In this document: positions 4,851-31,705 of the stretch, piece by piece
How the letters are laid out: each line of letters opens with the position of its first letter
How positions within the stretch are numbered: position 1 is the stretch's first letter
Virus record (IMG/VR): IMGVR_UViG_3300005263_000073
Coordinates: 1-32,686 of that record
From: a virus
Taxonomy: Duplodnaviria > Caudoviricetes
Strand: one strand, 5' to 3'
DNA: 32,686 bases
Program-made: the position numbers and the translations under genes
The notes under the pieces: model-generated
What the model was told of the DNA's origin: nothing
Databases searched by the model: none
Seen by the model: only the letters and a program-made list of their open reading frames with translations

Positions 4851-5735
4851 ATGTTTAAAGTATGTATTGACCCAGGACACAATGAAATTGGAGCAGATAC
4901 GGGTGCCAGATCCAAAAATCTGGTCGAGGAGATTCTGACCATATTGATTGCGAAGAAGATTAAAAAAGGGTTGGAAGCCCAGGGTAACTTCACAGTAATA
5001 ATGACTCGTGAAGGCCAGACTGTTAACGGCCCAGCCACTACCCTTCTCGACTCACTGCGAACCAGGTGCAGGATAGCGAATGAGGCCGGCGCAGATCTGT
5101 TTGTATCGGTCCATATCAATGCTGGCGGCGGTACAGGCTCCGAGGTGCTTATCTATAGTGCCGGCGGCAAGGCTGAAGCTTGCGCCAAGATCATGGCCCC
5201 GCTGATTGCCGACGCCGGCTCTTGGCCAAACCGGGGAGTCAAAACACAGAACGTCCATGTTTTGAGAGAAACCACCATGCCGGCTATCCTTACTGAAAAC
5301 GGCTTCATTGACAGCGACAAGGATTATCAGAAGTTACTCAAAGACATTGTCCTTCAGGATATCGCCGACGCCCATGTACTGGGAATATGCAATTTCTTTG
5401 GTGTCCAGTTTAGAACTGCCACAACAGCTGCAGCAGCAGTCACGGCATCGACACCCCGGGCCGCAGCGCTTCCTTTCCTGATTATATTCTCAGGTGAAGC
5501 TGAATACCGGGTAATGCCCTATTTACAGGAAGTCATGAAAGCCCCGGCAATTCCCCTGGCAGCCATTTCTGAAACAGTGGTCAATGCGTCCCAGAAGCTT
5601 ATCGGGATCGGTGGAGAACCTGAAGATTATGTGCTCGCCGGCAAGAAACTCACCCTATACAAGCATTTCACCGGCAGTGGCCGGATAGAGACCGCTGAAG
5701 AAGTGATCAAGGCCGCCAAAGGAGGAGTATCATGA
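4851..5735 (+). CDS. N-acetylmuramoyl-L-alanine amidase (Amidase_3) endolysin with C-terminal cell-wall-binding domain
   Basis: IDPGH, FVSVHINA, PAILTENGFID zinc-amidase motifs; Ala/Thr linker; CTD ending TGSGRIETAEEV resembles clostridial endolysin binding domains. Confidence 0.92.
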   Translation: MFKVCIDPGHNEIGADTGARSKNLVEEILTILIAKKIKKGLEAQGNFTVIMTREGQTVNGPATTLLDSLRTRCRIANEAGADLFVSVHINAGGGTGSEVLIYSAGGKAEACAKIMAPLIADAGSWPNRGVKTQNVHVLRETTMPAILTENGFIDSDKDYQKLLKDIVLQDIADAHVLGICNFFGVQFRTATTAAAAVTASTPRAAALPFLIIFSGEAEYRVMPYLQEVMKAPAIPLAAISETVVNASQKLIGIGGEPEDYVLAGKKLTLYKHFTGSGRIETAEEVIKAAKGGVS

Positions 5736-7889: not shown

Positions 7890-7920
7890 AATCCCAGTAT
7901 AAACTGGGATTTTTTATTTT
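7890..7920 (+). terminator. intrinsic terminator closing the early operon
   Basis: AATCCCAGT-ATAA-ACTGGGATT followed by a T-rich tract. Confidence 0.8.
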
Positions 7921-7945
7921 GCTTAAATTTAAGGAGGAATGCCCG

Positions 7946-8422
7946 ATGCCGGCGGAAATCACTACCCTGATAACCCAAGTATTATCCAATCTGGCCCTTG
8001 TAATTGTTGCCCTTTTGGGAGCGTTGATCTCTTTGTATGTCAAGAAAGGGATTAAGAAACTCCAGGCCGAGACTCAAAAGATTAATGATGAAGCAACCAG
8101 AACTGTTTTTGATGCTGCGCTCAGCAGGTTGAATGATGTTGCCTTAAAGACGGTCAATGCGATTGAGCAAACGACCAAGAAAGACATCCTGAAAGCTGTA
8201 AGCGATGGAACGGCCAGCCGCGATCAGTTAAAGAATCTTGCTTTTGATGCTTATGAAGAAATAGTAGCAACTCTCGAACCGGAATACAGGAATCTACTCG
8301 AAGGCTCGTTGGGTGACGCCCAGACCTATATCATGAACCTGATTGAAGAAAAGCTTGAGGAAATCAAAACCAAGAAATTAGTTATCGATTTGGGGAATAC
8401 CTCCCCTGAAGTAACCGTTTAG
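7946..8422 (+). CDS. phage holin (LL-H family-like)
   Basis: Single N-terminal TM helix, then a helical domain (VNAIEQ...IEEKL); first gene after mor; SD AAGGAGG. Confidence 0.65.
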   Translation: MPAEITTLITQVLSNLALVIVALLGALISLYVKKGIKKLQAETQKINDEATRTVFDAALSRLNDVALKTVNAIEQTTKKDILKAVSDGTASRDQLKNLAFDAYEEIVATLEPEYRNLLEGSLGDAQTYIMNLIEEKLEEIKTKKLVIDLGNTSPEVTV

Positions 8423-8756: not shown

Positions 8757-9045
8757 TGCTCGCGAAATCAGAGGCAGAATACTCAAAATCTTAAATGTCG
8801 ATTACAGCAATGGCGCTAACGATCGGACGATCGGACTGACACTCAATGATATCCATTATTCGGTATCTCCCGCCGAAAAAGATGCCCATATACAGTTCCT
8901 TATCGATCTGGGTTATATCCAGGCAGAGGAAATTAAGAACGAAAAAATGGGCCTGTGCATGAAGGTGCTGAAGCTCACACCCAAAGGTAAAAACGTCGTT
9001 GATGGATATGAGCCGGCTGATCCCGGAGTGAAAGTCAAATGGTAG
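8746..9045 (+). CDS. Mu gp26-like winged-helix protein
   Basis: SD GGAGGTG, GTG 8746; RGRILKIL...LTPKGKNVVDG...DPGV pattern; synteny before gp27. Confidence 0.7.
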   Translation: MLIDAREIRGRILKILNVDYSNGANDRTIGLTLNDIHYSVSPAEKDAHIQFLIDLGYIQAEEIKNEKMGLCMKVLKLTPKGKNVVDGYEPADPGVKVKW

Positions 9046-9584
9046 ACAACAGACGAAAGCACCATAAAGTCACCACATTCCCTAGTGAAATCAAGGAAGC
9101 TGTAGACCGGCAGCTGGTTTCCGGTAAGACCTATAAAGAAATTGTTGGTTGGCTTAACCAAATGGGCCATAATATCGGGATGAGTTCAGTCCAAAGATAT
9201 GGGAGCGACTTTCTTACGAAACTGGAAAAACTCAAGCTTATCAAGGACCAGGCTAAAACGATCATCGACAGTAACCCGGAAACGCCGGCCACAGAAATGG
9301 CCGAAGCGGCCAACCAATTAGCGATTCAGCTAATCACTGAAAAACTGATGGAAGTTGAAAACTTGGACGGGGCAAAGATTACTGAAATATTCAAAGCATT
9401 GGCCCTTCTGGAACGCAGCGCGACCTCCAGGGAGAAGCTCAAATTCGAGTTTGATAAAGGTCTCAAGGCAGCCACCAATAAGGTTAAAGAAATGCTCCAA
9501 AAAGAGATCGAGGGCGATCCGGATCTCCTAGCTAGGTTGATCCAGCATGTGGATGCCATCCAAAACCGGACTGCGGAAGGTTGA
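9039..9584 (+). CDS. DUF3486 / Mu gp27-like terminase small subunit
   Basis: RRKHHKVTTFPSEIKEAVD...TYKEIVGWL...SSVQRYG N-terminal HTH signature. Confidence 0.85.
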   Translation: MVDNRRKHHKVTTFPSEIKEAVDRQLVSGKTYKEIVGWLNQMGHNIGMSSVQRYGSDFLTKLEKLKLIKDQAKTIIDSNPETPATEMAEAANQLAIQLITEKLMEVENLDGAKITEIFKALALLERSATSREKLKFEFDKGLKAATNKVKEMLQKEIEGDPDLLARLIQHVDAIQNRTAEG

Positions 9585-9588
9585 TAGT

Positions 9589-10116
9589 ATGGCAAATGAA
9601 AACCTATGGTATGTCCTTCAGGTCCGTACCGGGAAAGAAGCAGATATCAAAGCCAAGATTATAGAAGAGTATGCGGCTATCTCAAAAGACCACTACCGGC
9701 CCATCGCATTGGTTCCGGAAAGAAAGCTGATCGAGCGAAGACAGGGCCGGGAGTTCCGGATCACAAGGACCATGTTTCCGGGATATGTTTTTCTGAATTT
9801 TGTCCTCAATGACTCAACCTATTATCGAATCAAGCAAATACCGAATATCATCCGGTTTCTGGGTACCACTAGGCCAACGCCGGTACCGATCGAGCAGATG
9901 CAGCCAATTCTTAGAATGTGTAGCCTTGGAGAACTAATCGATATCTCGAAGGTCAGCATCGGCAAAACAGTGGAGATCGTCGAAGGCCCGCTGCAGGGAT
10001 ATGTCGGGAATATCGTCAGCATTGATAAACGCAAGAAAAGAGCCAAAGTCAGATTCCAAATCTTAGATGAAACCAAAGAAATTGACTTAGGGATTGAGGT
10101 TGTAGGCAGCAACTAA
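9589..10116 (+). CDS. loaP: NusG paralogue, LoaP-type transcription antiterminator
   Basis: WYVLQVRTGKE and MFPGYVF NGN motifs; KOW VEIVEGPLQGYVG followed by the basic IDKRKKRAKV stretch typical of LoaP. Confidence 0.8.
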   Translation: MANENLWYVLQVRTGKEADIKAKIIEEYAAISKDHYRPIALVPERKLIERRQGREFRITRTMFPGYVFLNFVLNDSTYYRIKQIPNIIRFLGTTRPTPVPIEQMQPILRMCSLGELIDISKVSIGKTVEIVEGPLQGYVGNIVSIDKRKKRAKVRFQILDETKEIDLGIEVVGSN

Positions 10117-10254
10117 CCCCCTATTCTACATTCAGCAGAGTAATATTGCAGACTGTTGCGGCGTCGTAATAGAGCTTTGCGATTATTGTTTTAAGAGCAT
10201 ACCGGCACTTTAAGGTGACGGATGGCGAAGCTATGCCAAATTGGGGGTGTGGTC
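10117..10254 (+). promoter_or_regulatory. structured cis element / leader RNA between loaP and terL
   Basis: Several stems found by eye, including a GCATA/TATGC-closed junction containing GCGAAGC; CCCCC/GGGGG could close the whole element. Confidence 0.5.
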
Positions 10255-11982
10255 TTGGGCTTACTTAACGATCTTATTAAACAGAATAAAACCGAAAACG
10301 AAAAATCTCATGAGGATATTCTTGAGCTTAAACGGCTTATTGGTGAATATATCAACAAAGATGATTCTCCTGAAAGAGTAAAGATCAGGCAGGAATTCTT
10401 AGATGGGAAATCTTTATCAGGGGAAACCGGGATCCGCAGGAAGCTTGGTGCCATCGATCTTGAATTCTTTGGCCGGGCATACTTCCCCCACTACTTCTTC
10501 CGTCCAAGTCCCACCTTTCATCGGGAACTGGATCAGATTTGGCATAACGGAGTTTTAAAGGCGTCATTTCCTACTTCCAGAGAAGAGTCTCAGACCATCA
10601 GCAGGATGAAGGGTTCTAAGTCAGCTTTGGCCGCCCCGCGTGGTCATGCCAAGTCGACAAATGTAACCTTTAAAGATACCATCCATGCCGTGGCTTACGA
10701 ATACAAGCATTATATCCTGCTTCTCTCCGATAGCTCCGATCAGGCGGAGGGCTTCTTAAGCAATATCCGGGAAGAGTTTGAAGAAAACGAAGCCATCCAA
10801 GAAGACTTTGGCGATCTGTCCGGTAAGATCTGGCGTAATAATGTCCTGCTGACCGTGACCAACATCAAGATCGAGGCGATCGGCTCCGGTAAGAAGGTCC
10901 GTGGACGGAAACATAAAAACTGGCGTCCGGATCTCATTATCCTGGACGATATTGAAAACGATGAAAACGTCCGTACCCCTGAGCAGCGCAAGAAACTGGA
11001 AAACTGGTTTTACAAGGCTGTGTCCAAAGCCGGGGATGATTATACGGACATTGTTTATATCGGCACCGTCCTTCACTATGACGCTCTGCTGATGAAGATA
11101 CTCCGCAACCCGGGTTATATGACCATTAAATACCAGGCGGTTATTTCCTTTGCTGTCAATAAAGGCCTTTGGGACCAGTGGGAACGGATCTATACCGATC
11201 TGGCTAATGAGCAGAGGGCAGCCGATGCGCAAGCCTTTTTTGAAGTGCATAAGGAAGACATGCTGGAAGGCACCAAAGTTCTCTGGGAAGAGAAACTTTC
11301 CTACTATGACCTGATGGTCTCCAAAGTGGACGAAGGTGAAGCAAGCTTTTATTCTGAGTTTCAGAATGAGCCGATCAATCCGGACGACTGCCTATTTAAT
11401 GAAGAATGGTTCGATTTCTATAACCCTTATACGATTGACTTCAAAGTTGGCTTTACCTTCTTTGGCTTCGTGGATCCGTCGCTGGGCAAGAGTAAAAAGT
11501 CAGACTACAGCACGATCATTACCTTAGCCAGAGAGGATAGCACTGGGTACCTTTACGACCTTGACGCCGACATCGAGCGCCGGCATCCGGATAAAATCAT
11601 CCTGGATGTTCTGGAAAAAGAACGCTGGCTGCGGATAACCTACGGTAAAGGATACAAGAAGTTCGGCTGCGAAACCAACCAGTTCCAATTTTTCTTAAAA
11701 GAGCAGCTGGCAAAAGCCAGTGCCAAAGCTGGATTATACCTGCCGATCGAAGAAGTCAACCAGACAACGAACAAAGAGCTGCGCATCGAGAGTCTGCAGC
11801 CGGATATTAAGAATAAGTACATTAAATTCAACCCGGCTCACAAAACCCTGCTTGAACAGCTCAAATTCTTCCCGATGGCGGCTCATGACGACGGTCCCGA
11901 TGCACTGGAAGCTTGCCGGACATTAGCCGGTGGAAACAAGCGCAAACTGAGGACGTTAAGCAAACGCCTGTTGGGATTGTAA
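10255..11982 (+). CDS. terL: phage terminase large subunit
   Basis: Walker A APRGHAKS, Walker B LIILDDIE, nuclease VDPSLG and HDDGPDA; likely TTG start 10255 after SD GGGGGTG. Confidence 0.93.
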   Translation: MGLLNDLIKQNKTENEKSHEDILELKRLIGEYINKDDSPERVKIRQEFLDGKSLSGETGIRRKLGAIDLEFFGRAYFPHYFFRPSPTFHRELDQIWHNGVLKASFPTSREESQTISRMKGSKSALAAPRGHAKSTNVTFKDTIHAVAYEYKHYILLLSDSSDQAEGFLSNIREEFEENEAIQEDFGDLSGKIWRNNVLLTVTNIKIEAIGSGKKVRGRKHKNWRPDLIILDDIENDENVRTPEQRKKLENWFYKAVSKAGDDYTDIVYIGTVLHYDALLMKILRNPGYMTIKYQAVISFAVNKGLWDQWERIYTDLANEQRAADAQAFFEVHKEDMLEGTKVLWEEKLSYYDLMVSKVDEGEASFYSEFQNEPINPDDCLFNEEWFDFYNPYTIDFKVGFTFFGFVDPSLGKSKKSDYSTIITLAREDSTGYLYDLDADIERRHPDKIILDVLEKERWLRITYGKGYKKFGCETNQFQFFLKEQLAKASAKAGLYLPIEEVNQTTNKELRIESLQPDIKNKYIKFNPAHKTLLEQLKFFPMAAHDDGPDALEACRTLAGGNKRKLRTLSKRLLGL

Positions 11983-12114: not shown

Positions 12115-13497
12115 ATGGATAATATTGAAAATTTCCCACTAAAACCGCCACGGATTTTTCTGTCTAAAGATACGATCATGACCCCGGCGCTTCTGGATCA
12201 GCTGATTCAAAAGCATAAACTGTTTGCTCTTCCCAGATACAGACTGCTGCAGGAATACTACGAGAAAGAGACAAAAATCACCAAGCGGAAAATAGCTGAT
12301 CCGGAAAAGCCGAACAATAAATTGGTCAATGACCATGCCGGATATATTATCGATGTGGCCAGCGGCTATTTTATGGGGAAATCGGTAGATTATAACTCCG
12401 ATGATGAAGGCTTGATTCAGGAGCTGGACAACATATTTAAAGCTTGCGATGAAGGCAGCAACAACTATGAAATAGCTAAACAGGCTGGAATCAAAGGTCA
12501 CTCCTACGAATTGCTGTATATCGATGAAAATGCCCGTCCGCATTTGAAATGGCAGGATCCAAAAGAAACCATTGTCGTATATGACGACAGCATTGAGCAT
12601 GCTATTTTATTCGGGATCCGGTACTACTTGACGGATAACCTTTTGACAAACACACAAAAAGAACATGCTGAAGTTTATGACGCCAAAAAAATCCACGCCT
12701 ACAGCAAAGAAAATGACGTCTGGGTTTTGACTGGTGAAAAAGAACACTACTTTGCTGGTGTTCCGATCATTGAGTATCTGAACAACGAAGAGCGTCTGGG
12801 GGATTTTGAAGGTGTCCGTACCTTAATTGACGCCTATGACAAAAGCGAATCTGATACCGCCAATGATACAGAATACTTTACAGATGCTTATTTGGTGCTG
12901 GCTGGTTATGGAGATACGGACAAAGAAGACATAAAGGAAATGAAAGAAAACAGGGTGCTTCTGGTGGATAAAGAAGGATCCGCGCAGTGGCTGATTAAAG
13001 AGATCAACGATGCATCGCTGGAAAATACCAAAGACAGGCTGCAAAAAGATATCCACCGGTTTTCAAAAGTTCCGAACCTCACGGATGAGGCTTTTGCTGG
13101 GAATCTTTCTGGCGTGGCCCTGGGATTCAAACTTTGGGGCTTGGAGCAACTGGCTACCATCAAGGAACAAAAATTCAGGCAGGCTATCCGGCAGCGGATC
13201 CGGCTCATCGTTAGCTTCTTAAACCTTAAAAAAGGCACCAGCTATGATCCGGAAAAAGTCAGAATGAAGTTTTACCGGAACATTCCTAAAAACGTCCTGG
13301 AGGCCACCGAGATTGTATCCAAAGTCAGCGGTATCATCAGCCGGGAGACCCAGCTTGAGAACCTGCCGATCGTTGAGGATGTCAAGGATGAGCTGAAACG
13401 CATCAAGAAGGAACAGCAGGAACAACTGGACGGACTGGGCTTTGATACTTCAACTCAAACTGACCAATCAGAAAATTCGTCGGCAGGTGAATCCTAA
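12115..13497 (+). CDS. phage portal protein, SPP1 gp6-like
   Basis: KPNNKLVND, VPIIEYLNNEERLGDFE...LIDAYD, FAGNLSGVAL motifs; SD AAGGAGG. Confidence 0.93.
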   Translation: MDNIENFPLKPPRIFLSKDTIMTPALLDQLIQKHKLFALPRYRLLQEYYEKETKITKRKIADPEKPNNKLVNDHAGYIIDVASGYFMGKSVDYNSDDEGLIQELDNIFKACDEGSNNYEIAKQAGIKGHSYELLYIDENARPHLKWQDPKETIVVYDDSIEHAILFGIRYYLTDNLLTNTQKEHAEVYDAKKIHAYSKENDVWVLTGEKEHYFAGVPIIEYLNNEERLGDFEGVRTLIDAYDKSESDTANDTEYFTDAYLVLAGYGDTDKEDIKEMKENRVLLVDKEGSAQWLIKEINDASLENTKDRLQKDIHRFSKVPNLTDEAFAGNLSGVALGFKLWGLEQLATIKEQKFRQAIRQRIRLIVSFLNLKKGTSYDPEKVRMKFYRNIPKNVLEATEIVSKVSGIISRETQLENLPIVEDVKDELKRIKKEQQEQLDGLGFDTSTQTDQSENSSAGES

Positions 13498-15059
13498 TGG
13501 ATATGAAGGATCAGTCCCGTGATCGGGCCGAAGAGTATTTCCTGAAGTCTGAAAAGGACCTGGAGAAGATCAAACGTCTTTACCAGTTATCCCTTGCAGA
13601 TATCGAAAAAGAACTTTCTAAATTCTATGCCCGGTACGCTGTGGAAAATCAGATCAGCCTGGCTGAAGCCCAGAAAGTACTCAATACCAAAGAGTTAAGC
13701 GAATTTCGTCTGAGTTTTGAAGAATACCTGGCTATGGCTCAAATCAATACAGACGGCAGATACGCTAAGGAGCTGGCGAATCTCAGCAAGAAAGTGCAAA
13801 TCACCCGGCTGCAGTCCCTCCAAGCTCAGATTCAAATGCAGCTTGACGGGATGTATGAAAAGTATCAGGAAGAAACAGCCGATATTTTGGGAAGTACCTA
13901 TGAGGCGAACTATTACCGATCGATCTATGAAATCAACTCCAAGCTTGGCATAGGTGTGGACTTTGCTTTATTGAATCCGGAGCTGGTGGAAAAAGCGATC
14001 AACTTCCCTTGGTCCGGAATGAGTTTTTCCGAAAGGATCTGGGGGCAGAAAGACCGGCTAGTAAGTAATATGCAAAATGTCATTTCCCAGGGGTTGATTC
14101 AGGGGAAGTCGATCCAGAAGATGACGGCGGACATCTCAAGGAGGATGGAAGTCGGTTACGCCGACGCACACCGCCTGATCATGACTGAGACCAGCCGTGT
14201 AATCAATCAGGGTACCCTTGATGGATACAGAAAAAGTCTGGTTGTAGAAATGTATGAGTACCTAGCGGAATTGGATGTGCATACGTCGGATATCTGCCGG
14301 GGGCTTGACGGTCAGAAGTTTAAAATATCTGACGCTGAGATCGGGAGTAATTATCCCCCCACTCATCCAAACTGCCGCAGCACAACTGTTGCTTATTTCG
14401 GGGATGATTCAGCGGCCAGGGTCGCCAGGGACTTCACGGGTCAAACCTATAACGTGCCGGCGGGTATGAAATACCAGGAATGGTACGATACCCACGTTAA
14501 AGATCAGGTTTCAGCCTGGCTACGAGAGCAGGATCCCAAAGCCCAGGAAAAGTTCTTAAAGGGTAAGCAAAAGCGGATTCTCTTCCAGGCGGGGATCCTT
14601 GAGGAAAAAGATTTCCACAGATCCTTACAGGAACTGCAAAATAATGGTATACTAACCATAACGGACGGCACTGTGAAACACGCTTCCAAAGGCGTTTTTA
14701 CTGAAGTTGGACATCGCCTTAAGGAAGGCGGCCATGGACAAGACAGTCTGGACTACATGAAAAAGCATAATATCCAGTATAATCTTACAAAGACCTTTTC
14801 AAATGGGGTCCGGATCGGCAATGTTCCTGGTCATAAAAACAAGTTTAAAACAAAAGGTGACGGCCAATCATGGTTTCCAGAAGACTGGCCCGAGGATAAA
14901 ATCCAGATAGCCGGTACGTACGTTGCCAACCAGCGAAAGCCTGGGGAACGTAAAGTATATGCAAATTATGAAAATGTGAGGATTGGTGTTATCTTTGATG
15001 AGAATGACAAAGTAACAACAATCTTCCCGGACTTCAGTCAGGATGATATTAAGAAATGA
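13497..15059 (+). CDS. minor capsid protein (SPP1 gp7/MuF) with C-terminal EndoU nuclease toxin domain
   Basis: MuF motifs FSERIWG, RLIMTET, YPPTHPNCRST; C-terminal H..G...GGHG...SWFPEDW...TIFP bacterial EndoU signature. Confidence 0.88.
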   Translation: MDMKDQSRDRAEEYFLKSEKDLEKIKRLYQLSLADIEKELSKFYARYAVENQISLAEAQKVLNTKELSEFRLSFEEYLAMAQINTDGRYAKELANLSKKVQITRLQSLQAQIQMQLDGMYEKYQEETADILGSTYEANYYRSIYEINSKLGIGVDFALLNPELVEKAINFPWSGMSFSERIWGQKDRLVSNMQNVISQGLIQGKSIQKMTADISRRMEVGYADAHRLIMTETSRVINQGTLDGYRKSLVVEMYEYLAELDVHTSDICRGLDGQKFKISDAEIGSNYPPTHPNCRSTTVAYFGDDSAARVARDFTGQTYNVPAGMKYQEWYDTHVKDQVSAWLREQDPKAQEKFLKGKQKRILFQAGILEEKDFHRSLQELQNNGILTITDGTVKHASKGVFTEVGHRLKEGGHGQDSLDYMKKHNIQYNLTKTFSNGVRIGNVPGHKNKFKTKGDGQSWFPEDWPEDKIQIAGTYVANQRKPGERKVYANYENVRIGVIFDENDKVTTIFPDFSQDDIKK

Positions 15060-15069
15060 GGTGAGGATC

Positions 15070-15375
15070 ATGGTGGATAGTGAAAAACTTAAAAGACTTA
15101 TTCGGGAGTTCAGAAAGCTGGATATTAACGATCCCGCCGCCTCTGAATACTGGGAAGCTTTCATTGAGGAATTGGGATCAGAACATGAAACTATCGAATT
15201 TTTATCCGGGGCAAGTAGTGAAGACTTGTTTATATTAAGCTCGGTATTTGATGATCTGTCTTTAAAATTCCAAAGCCCAGAATTTATCAAATTTCTCAAA
15301 AGCCTGGCTGAGGATCACCCTGCAGCGGAAATGGATGTCGATATTCAATTCGCGGAGCAGACTCTTAACGGCTAA
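15070..15375 (+). CDS. putative immunity protein for the MuF-EndoU toxin
   Basis: Small acidic helical 101 aa ORF directly after the toxin domain with SD GAGGTGA; not a structural gene family. Confidence 0.7.
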   Translation: MVDSEKLKRLIREFRKLDINDPAASEYWEAFIEELGSEHETIEFLSGASSEDLFILSSVFDDLSLKFQSPEFIKFLKSLAEDHPAAEMDVDIQFAEQTLNG

Positions 15376-15412
15376 GATAAGACTATTGCTGAATCCAATA
15401 AAATAACGTTAT

Positions 15413-15444
15413 ATTATTAAAGCCCTTCGAGGGCTTTTAATAAT
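15413..15444 (+). terminator. intrinsic (probably bidirectional) terminator inside the head operon
   Basis: ATTATTAAAGCCCT-TCG-AGGGCTTTTAATAAT. Confidence 0.7.
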
Positions 15445-15520
15445 GCCCTTTTAAGTTTAAAGGACTGACGCTCTATGCGAAGGTCTTTTTATATTTCCCA
15501 AAAAAGAAAGGAGAATTCCC

Positions 15521-30512: not shown

Positions 30513-30555
30513 GGTACATAAAATAAGTAATAAACAAACATATTCAGTAAACTAC

Positions 30556-30604
30556 TTTTGCAAAAACGGGTGCGAATTTTTGCGAAAATTTTTGCGAAGC
30601 TACA
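30556..30604 (+). repeat. prophage right end (attR) with putative transposase-binding repeats
   Basis: TGCAAA 30559, TGCGAA 30571, 30581, 30593, ending CTACA with terminal CA 30603-30604; host reading frame begins at 30605. Confidence 0.8.
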
Positions 30605-31705
30605 ATAAACAATATTGTAATTATTTGTGATAAAGAAAATAATATAATAACATTTAATAAAGAATTTTTCATTACGTCAGGTGCAATCGAGGATGAATTA
30701 AAGGGCTATAATCTTATTGATTTATGTAATATGCTTTCTGTTGACCCCAATGAAGTAATGGGAATCAAAGAAAGATTATTGTCACAAAATGCCGAAAGAT
30801 TTGAATTTTCTATTCTTAACTTTAATCAGGAGAAAAAAATCCTCACCGGCAGTCTTTCACCGGTCTCCAACGTTGAAAATGAAATAATAGGATATATACT
30901 TGTGGCCAGCGATATTACTGAAAGAGAAGAAATTCGCAGTCATATGGAACAACAGGAAAAACTGGCGGTACTTGGGCAGATGGCAGCCGGAATTGTTCAT
31001 GAAATAAAAAATCCTCTAACAACAATTAAAGGATTCAATCAAATAATACTTAAGAAAACAAAAGAAGCTTCTACAAGAGAATATGCTGATATAATCGAAG
31101 ATGAAGTAAATCAGGTAAATACCGTAGTCACTGACTTTCTGGCTTTTGCCAGACCGAGGAAACCATCTCTTAAAGAAATATCGATCAACGAGTTGTTTAA
31201 ATCAATAGAGATCATGATAGAAACGCAGCTTTTTATTAAAAGAATTCTGTTTGAATTAAAGCTTCCTTCAGTCGAACATACTGTATTGGTAGATGACAGT
31301 CAGATTAAACAGGTTATCATCAACATTATTAAAAATGCCATAGATGCCTTGGAAACCGTTGAAAACCCGAAGCTCAACATCAATGTAAATTTCTTGAAAA
31401 ACAACGGTGAAATGAAGATAAGCATTAAGGATAATGGCAGGGGCATCTCCGCTCAGGACATAATGAAATTGGGAACTCCCTTTTTCACGACAAAAGAAAA
31501 GGGAACGGGGCTGGGGTTAAGCATTTGTTATCAGATTATTAAGGAGAACAACGGTATAATAACCTGCGAAAGCAAACTGAATGAGGGAACAACATTTAAC
31601 ATCGTGCTTCCATGCACAGAAAGATGTCAACTCGGAACAGACACTCTCCCCTTGGATAATTATTTTAATATCCACTGCTTTTCTGCATCGACGACTTCAT
31701 CATAA
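30605..31705 (+). pseudogene. 3' part of a PAS-domain sensor histidine kinase interrupted by the prophage
   Basis: From 30605 the frame reads INNIVIICDKENNIITFNKEF (PAS start) into AAGIVHEIKNPL (HisKA), QVIINIIKNA, DNGRGI, PFFTTKEKGTGLGL (HATPase); upstream in-frame stop at 30548-30550 and no start codon before the junction. Confidence 0.85.

Follow-up and report, generated by a model that had tools for sequence, protein, structure and literature searches.

The window, that is, the whole stretch of 32,686 nucleotides analysed here, carries a gene for a NusG paralog directly ahead of a long operon of virion genes, and the question that this locus raises is what the 138 nt between the two are for. 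The DNA is a Mu-like prophage: A first set of genes (transposase, MuB-like ATPase, gemA, mor and holin) is followed by a Mu-type terS, the NusG paralog and terL, and the head and tail genes after terL run on the same strand up to about 30.4 kb. The spacer between loaP and terL holds a conserved element of two hairpins and a GGCGAAGC box, and its parts and immediate neighbours are as follows:

9039..9584, + strand: Mu-type terminase small subunit, terS (PF11985, phrog_426)
9589..10116, + strand: loaP, LoaP-class NusG paralog of 175 aa with NGN and KOW domains (NF033641)
10117..10121, + strand: C5 run immediately 3' of the loaP stop codon, complementary to the Shine-Dalgarno (SD) sequence of terL (pairing probability 0.84)
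10144..10171, + strand: P1, bulged hairpin with a UGCG (UNCG) tetraloop at 10157-10160 (folds, likeness to dfn by eye, covariation)
10145..10193, + strand: alternative 16-bp hairpin with a U-rich tail, terminator-like and lineage-specific (-14.2 kcal/mol)
10172..10201, + strand: linker (alignment A4, RAGATH-28 consensus)
10202..10221, + strand: P2, variable stem-loop ending 2 nt ahead of the box (pairing probability 0.98)
10224..10235, + strand: GGCGAAGC box (10224-10231) plus TATG, ops/opsX-like (box conservation, pyrimidine-purine step)
10243..10247, + strand: SD sequence GGGGG of terL, 7 nt ahead of TTG 10255 (sequence)
10255..11982, + strand: terL, terminase large subunit, first gene of the head/tail operon of about 20 kb (phrog_38)

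Translation of terL most likely starts at TTG 10255, as judged from the SD sequence and from alignment with the N-termini of relatives. A promoter scan of the spacer returned none near consensus, and the head/tail operon is the presumed target of the antitermination element. Elsewhere in the prophage, an amidase endolysin (4851-5735) is encoded in the early region, some 2 kb away from the holin (7919-8422), with gemA and mor between them, and a strong terminator-like hairpin (7890-7911) stands ahead of the holin. The Mu F-like minor head protein (13497-15059) has a C-terminal bacterial EndoU nuclease domain (PF14436) and is directly followed by a 110-aa ORF (15043-15375) without assigned function; the two resemble a MuF toxin-immunity pair. 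At about 30545-30610, in the gap that separates the last phage gene from a histidine-kinase gene (30731-31705), short TTTTGCGAA-like repeats occur that are possibly transposase-binding sites of the prophage end.

The identification of the upstream gene as loaP, made in the earlier note, is borne out by the protein, which scores 164 bits against NCBIfam model NF033641 (cut-off 125) and stays under the respective cut-offs of the nusG, UpxY and RfaH models. Its best PDB match is 8F5G (E 2.7e-31; next NusG E 1.5e-18), which we take to be the LoaP-RNA crystal structure. Both E49-R50 and the segment IDKRKKRAK match 8F5G, and by their numbering they presumably correspond to the RNA-binding residues E40, R41 and I143 of Bacillus velezensis LoaP; R50 is present in 38 and E49 in 27 of 42 LoaP relatives. 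The nearest named protein comes from Dehalobacter sp. TeCB1 (82%). In INPHARED, 23 records match the window LoaP, and because all of them do so at no more than 33% identity, the collection contains no cultured LoaP-type phage. In a NusG-rooted LoaP tree, 38 chromosomal LoaPs are nested among 30 phage LoaPs with modest (unstarred) support; since the AU test (p 0.43) leaves monophyly of the phage LoaPs standing, a phage origin of chromosomal LoaP is at most a possibility.

The spacer folds differently from what had first been proposed. All pairing probabilities were computed on the fold of 10117-10254, which as a whole is slightly better than that of shuffled sequences (z = -1.8; 8 of 200 shuffles equally good). 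The stem segments quoted in the earlier note all lie where it had placed them and are complementary. Two of these stems, CAGCAG/CTGTTG (10133-10158) and TCGTAA/TTGCGA (10164-10182), nevertheless pair with probabilities of 0.002 and 0.000, respectively; each consumes half of P1, a hairpin overlooked in that reading, and we rejected both for their near-zero probability and their incompatibility with the covarying P1. The helix GCATA/TATGC (10197-10236), which was to close a three-way junction, was also discarded: Its pairing probability is 0.000, it does not covary in 42 homologues (61.1% paired vs 62.1% in shuffles, 425 of 500 of which are as high), and L001, the nearest relative, has a U-U mismatch inside it. 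The CCG...CGG stem within this junction, our P2, was recognised correctly, as it is conserved and pairs with a probability of 0.98. GCGAAGC is a stable mini-hairpin, and one had been assigned to GC-GAA-GC (10225-10231): This segment does lie in the conserved GGCGAAGC box, but as RNA it pairs at 0.017, and as DNA, calculated with the parameters of ViennaRNA, it was not predicted to fold into the mini-hairpin. The proposed C5/G5 pairing is probable (0.84) but confined to the window lineage, the C5 run being kept in L001 and missing in the other viral loci inspected.

P1 is closed by U10156-G10161 and G10155-C10162 and has two bulges on its 5' side. In the window lineage it can be extended to 10135-10180, which yields -16.5 kcal/mol and a z of -2.5, whereas the 28-nt core alone has a z of -0.2. 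The linker carries a purine-rich motif, GG..AYA (columns 41-47 of alignment A4), which is found in most members, conserved without a consistent pairing partner, and degenerate in the window. The distance from P1 to the box is 64-77 nt in 40 of 42 copies.

The element depends on loaP. From loaP loci gathered in viral, genome and metagenome collections we scored a strict two-part pattern consisting of the P1 core and, 45-100 nt later, the box. Of 88 viral loaP loci examined, 64 distinct ones remained once 22 duplicates and 2 short loci had been removed, and the pattern follows 51 of these vs 10 of 1674 background windows; in the genome collection it is present at 17 of 80 loci, and in the metagenome collection at 4 of 71 (9 left out). 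Scans that used the DNA alone lead back to the same gene: In the first, 11 of 25 matches sit 9-13 nt past a loaP stop codon and the other 14 look like chance, and in a second, with another pattern, a NusG paralog lies upstream in 70 of the 80 matches examined (120 were returned). When the second scan was reduced to 55 non-redundant matches, 45 passed, in 4 more the paralog gene overlapped the element, 2 lacked upstream DNA and 4 were chance-like. A covariance model of the element, R1, was applied to 64 loci chosen by terL and found it at all 20 loci with loaP, several of which equal or resemble training sequences, and at none of the 44 without loaP, which have no training overlap and include one with only 215 nt upstream. 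Among 28 non-redundant viral loci, 25 have a Mu-type terS immediately ahead of loaP, and 20 have terL as the downstream ORF.

R1 also finds the element in bacterial genomes. With 26 candidates scored per genome and one training genome in each sample, it was detected in 5/5 LoaP-positive Bacilli genomes vs 3/146 others (one of these with a split loaP), and in 9/25 LoaP-positive Clostridia genomes vs 5/125 others. A loaP-like gene lies within 1.5 kb in 11 of the 25 genome-sample loci, and most of the remaining loci lead polysaccharide or polyketide genes; four have no recognisable P1. Chromosomal copies head polysaccharide, PKS and NRPS genes, which are the known LoaP target classes. Many chromosomal loaP genes, including most of those in spirochaetes, have no adjacent element, and among 13 further loaP flanks R1 matched in only 4. 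At one locus (L378, G248:C9:62377-62889) loaP is broken into two halves on opposite strands and the downstream element is still there.

The earlier note had tied its proposal to conservation at homologous loci, and there the element is conserved and P1 covaries. Across 42 non-redundant copies with a mean identity of 54%, the P1 pairs are formed in 82% of cases vs 57% in shuffles that keep the relatedness among copies, and 0 of 500 shuffles are as high. The P1 closing pair and the box both belonged to the selection pattern. Because the closing pair was selected for and shows no more than four changes over the LoaP tree, it is the outer P1 pairs that carry weight, and these show changes on both sides across copies. 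In 30 held-out copies, all less than 80% identical to the training sequences and freed beforehand of 4 chance-like rows, pair -4/+11 is formed in 24 where 11.3 are expected. In the wider family, two extra pairs (A-U, U-G or C-G) close the UNCG tetraloop, and an alignment fitted to the covariance model, which leans towards that model, has compensatory changes in both helices. As RNAalifold predicted no pairs on alignment A4 (MAFFT), probably owing to register shifts caused by differing bulge sizes and P2 lengths, we counted pairs on named structures instead. In two copies of one genome (L406, L409) a GGUU loop replaces UNCG while the remaining element is intact, possibly a specificity variant. 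Some chromosomal copies (L362-L365, L367, L369, L370, L374-L376) have an AAAAT(C) motif about 15-25 nt 5' of P1, which is possibly a promoter -10 element starting a transcript just ahead of the hairpin.

In the second half of the element it is position rather than sequence that is kept in P2: Its sequence varies freely, and its end stays 2-3 nt before the box. Relative to the box, 28 of 42 copies have this end at -3/-4 (shuffles 8.6 +/- 2.2), and the same register recurs in 25 of 30 held-out copies (shuffles 5.7 +/- 2.2). The box itself is near-invariant; of its eight bases, the central one is substituted most often, in 12 of 62 rows if 3 gaps are counted, much as the opsX core GCGNAGC is described with a variable centre (PMC11685472). 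A pyrimidine-purine (Y/R) step follows 10-11 nt after the first G of the box in 42/42 copies (null 19 +/- 3.3) and in 28/30 held-out copies, and these positions lay outside the selection pattern. The consensus pause of RNA polymerase has G at -11/-10, a pyrimidine at -1 and a purine at +1, and the window sequence has this geometry. We accordingly predict from the sequence a pause with the RNA 3' end at U10234, G at -11 and -10, and the end of P2 at -14, where P2 would act as a pause hairpin. Several Bacilli polyketide leaders, and by eye also dfn, have a degenerate box, and the box does not appear to be always needed, because some copies (L226, L269, L056, L024) keep P1 and lose it. Loci that keep P1 and the linker and have lost the GGCGAAGC box (L226, L269, L036, L052, L056, L076, L043) provide natural controls for its role.

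The statement that the spacer belongs to no named RNA family does not hold: Rfam RAGATH-28 (RF03052) matches it. The Rfam search gave no match at gathering score for the window, which aligns to the full RAGATH-28 model with 18 bits (E 0.4; cut-off 45.3), and among 20 loci scanned with this model, 7 of 12 viral loaP loci pass gathering at 52-80 bits, all passing loci being viral. Because 18 bits are below the cut-off while seven relatives pass, the window element is, by sequence, a divergent relative of RAGATH-28 and not a formal member. Both have two hairpins, a purine-rich linker and the tail GAUGGCGAAGC, and in the RAGATH-28 alignment the window shows a paired P2 and then exactly this tail. 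The first-hairpin loop of RAGATH-28, UUGAUUCGUC, is absent from the window, which has a U-G closing variant with a UGCG loop; the two variants have G, UNCG and C in common. They also differ in how they are drawn and classed: In Rfam, P1 has an unpaired 10-nt loop that hides the UNCG tetraloop and the entry is typed "Gene; sRNA", whereas the wider family has two more pairs and reaches chromosomal operon leaders. The motif reportedly goes back to Weinberg et al. 2017. The main text of PMC5737381, whose supplement describes most motifs, does not contain the name RAGATH-28, and the literature searched, which lies outside the Weinberg 2017 supplement, Goodson 2017 and Elghondakly 2021 and 2024, held nothing that links RAGATH-28, phages or the GGCGAAGC box to LoaP.

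The closest functional parallel to P1 is the dfn/mln LoaP system of Bacillus velezensis (PMC12691694), in which a LoaP-class protein is paired with a bulged UNCG hairpin that has the same inner pairs. Compared by eye, the dfn hairpin (PMC12691694, supplement) and P1 agree in outer stem, bulge, 2 bp, bulge and UGU-UNCG-GCR, and fold, by-eye comparison and covariation all give P1 the dfn-type arrangement of a UNCG tetraloop on a short stem with 5'-side bulges; by analogy, P1 would be the RNA ligand of LoaP. On visual comparison, a P2-like stem is also present in the dfn leader, as is a degenerate box, which lies 75 nt past the loop and just ahead of the mapped pause bracket; this bracket starts 2 nt past the site predicted by the box rule, and the mapped pause is reported to be specific to B. 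subtilis polymerase (PMC12691694). In that report, a downstream pause aids LoaP and is speculated to allow loading time, and LoaP is described as antagonising NusA at intrinsic terminators. The window differs from dfn in that protein and site are on a phage, on one transcript and ahead of virion genes, and in that its box is an intact GGCGAAGC; the published dfn model has no ops-like site, and the window has a leader terminator only as a candidate.

The box, in turn, resembles the sites of two other NusG paralogs. The opsX of Bacteroides UpxY, which recruits a NusG paralog, is described as a pause hairpin ending at -14 to -9 together with a GCG..AGC non-template hairpin (YGCGNAGCR; PMC11685472). 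The window shares the GCGNAGC core and a hairpin end in this range (P2, at -14), whereas the flanks of its box (G, T) differ from the Y and R of opsX; moreover, opsX sits before its gene and is read through DNA, with no upstream RNA ligand. RfaH, too, operates without an RNA hairpin, and it acts against Rho with ribosome coupling, whereas LoaP is reported to oppose NusA at intrinsic terminators. In the register that we assume for the ops 12-mer, ops and the window box share the GGCG start, the AGC end and a Y/G step 11 nt from the first G. The ops core GCGGTAGC (PMC11685472) is replaced by GCGAAGC in the window, the loops differing by one base, by which that of the window is shorter.

The earlier note had proposed a loading site with an ops-like box, and this part of it stands on conservation, covariation and co-occurrence with loaP, even though most of the fold drawn for it was wrong. 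The element shows an anatomy of P1, linker, P2 and box, covaries, keeps a fixed spacing and depends on loaP, and the spacer is probably the loading site of the prophage's own LoaP antiterminator. Loading would proceed in three steps, for which our confidence differs. Very probably, LoaP would bind P1 with its UNCG loop on the nascent RNA, the mode of binding published for the dfn hairpin. About 70 nt further on, and here the balance tips only slightly in favour, the polymerase would pause at GGCGAAGC-N-Y/R; P2 would be the pause hairpin, and the box, exposed in the non-template strand, could fold a GC-GNA-GC mini-hairpin as in RfaH ops or Bacteroides opsX. The tethered LoaP would then, with good likelihood, transfer to the paused complex and suppress NusA-aided termination over the head/tail operon. 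Because LoaP is encoded just upstream on the same transcript, such loading would constitute a self-reinforcing late switch.

The target terminators are the weak link of this mechanism. Within 160 nt after the element, terminators occur in 16 of 42 copies in sense vs 10 in antisense orientation and 8.5 in shuffles, a weak enrichment, and in the window none was found within 160 nt downstream of the element. The read-through candidates in the window are 10145-10193 and 15459-15495. The stretch 15412-15495, which separates the head-protein genes from the scaffold gene, has two strong hairpins, of which one is accompanied by a U tract; these are candidate internal terminators of the late operon.

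The principal alternative dispenses with the predicted pause: LoaP would bind P1, and the box would work as RNA, be it as a boxA-like host Nus site, as a second LoaP contact or as part of a junction, and not as a pause or non-template DNA hairpin. We consider this unlikely. The conservation of the purine-rich linker motif without a consistent partner fits such a scaffold, as does the linker of several chromosomal copies (L046, L053, L055, L177), which by eye can pair with bases 3' of the box, and so does the report that pause signals of B. subtilis differ from the E. coli consensus (PMC7819879); however, the closing helix lacks covariation across the family, the fixed P2 end and the Y/R step suit pause geometry, and LoaP is reported to have required no further factor in vitro (PMC12691694). 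The alternative hairpin at 10145-10183 with its U tract suggests another role for P1, in which LoaP would mainly capture P1 and thereby block this terminator-like fold in the window lineage. P1 and this hairpin are mutually exclusive and within about 1 kcal/mol of each other in the full spacer, the hairpin is the strongest of 16 terminator-like sites in 7401-30800, and the segment is identical in L001. Only these two near-identical spacers show it, however, the other members having the purine-rich linker there; its tail is imperfect, so that a stricter terminator scan omits 10145-10193; and P2 and the box are left unexplained. A search for closer relatives of this lineage-specific fold returned only L001 and one chance match. 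As the main function we regard such a gate as quite improbable, while it could be an add-on to the loading site.

Two further readings place the element at the level of translation or of a separate RNA, and to each we assign hardly any probability. The earlier note had also considered a translational switch for terL, in which the C5/G5 pairing or the 5' arm of P1 would hide the SD sequence until LoaP or the ribosome terminating on loaP frees it. The SD sequence of the window is indeed mostly paired (unpaired probability 0.17), the C5 run follows the loaP stop codon immediately, and in L280 and L014 SD accessibility rises from 0.01 to 0.27 and 0.22, respectively, when P1 is forced; in the window, however, forced P1 shifts it from 0.17 to 0.22 only, a gene start lies within 45 nt in only 7 of 42 elements, and the element is conserved even where the next gene is 130-680 nt away, so a switch of this kind is not general. 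For a stand-alone sRNA or the start of a leader peptide one can cite the sRNA type of RAGATH-28 in Rfam and the ATG or GTG that precedes GCG in 34 of 42 copies, where a reading RTG-GCG-AAG is frequent, yet the element depends on loaP, and a long operon always lies ahead of it. A leader peptide from ATG 10222 in the window was rejected, and leader peptides are excluded, because the frame is not conserved: The frames span 2-100 codons with no conservation past the third residue, three stop at codon 3, and eight copies have no start codon.

We return to the reading of the spacer as a loading site for LoaP. What is new in it is a LoaP ligand hairpin joined, to judge from the sequence, to an ops-like predicted pause on a phage, which would tie RAGATH-28 to a testable function. 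Tentatively, and with somewhat less than even confidence in the combination as a whole, RAGATH-28, the dfn hairpin and the window spacer may form one family of LoaP utilisation sites in which a UNCG RNA handle is followed, some 70 nt on, by a pause of the ops type with its non-template DNA hairpin, and which Mu-like Firmicute phages would use for late antitermination by their own NusG paralog. On the same joint reading, the GCG-N-AGC pause box would be common to RfaH, UpxY and LoaP, having decayed in dfn, and the chromosomal LoaP regulons for capsules and antibiotics may descend from a phage module. The 2025 reconstitution paper does not settle how LoaP transfers from the RNA hairpin to the elongating polymerase and speculates that a pause helps (PMC12691694). 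A conserved pause hairpin and box at a fixed distance from the ligand hairpin make this question testable on a 100-nt template. The model of the element helps to find LoaP-controlled capsule and antibiotic operons far from a loaP gene. If the proposed mechanism is true, the orphan motif RAGATH-28 would gain a function, and Mu-like Firmicute phages would gain a processive system of late antitermination.
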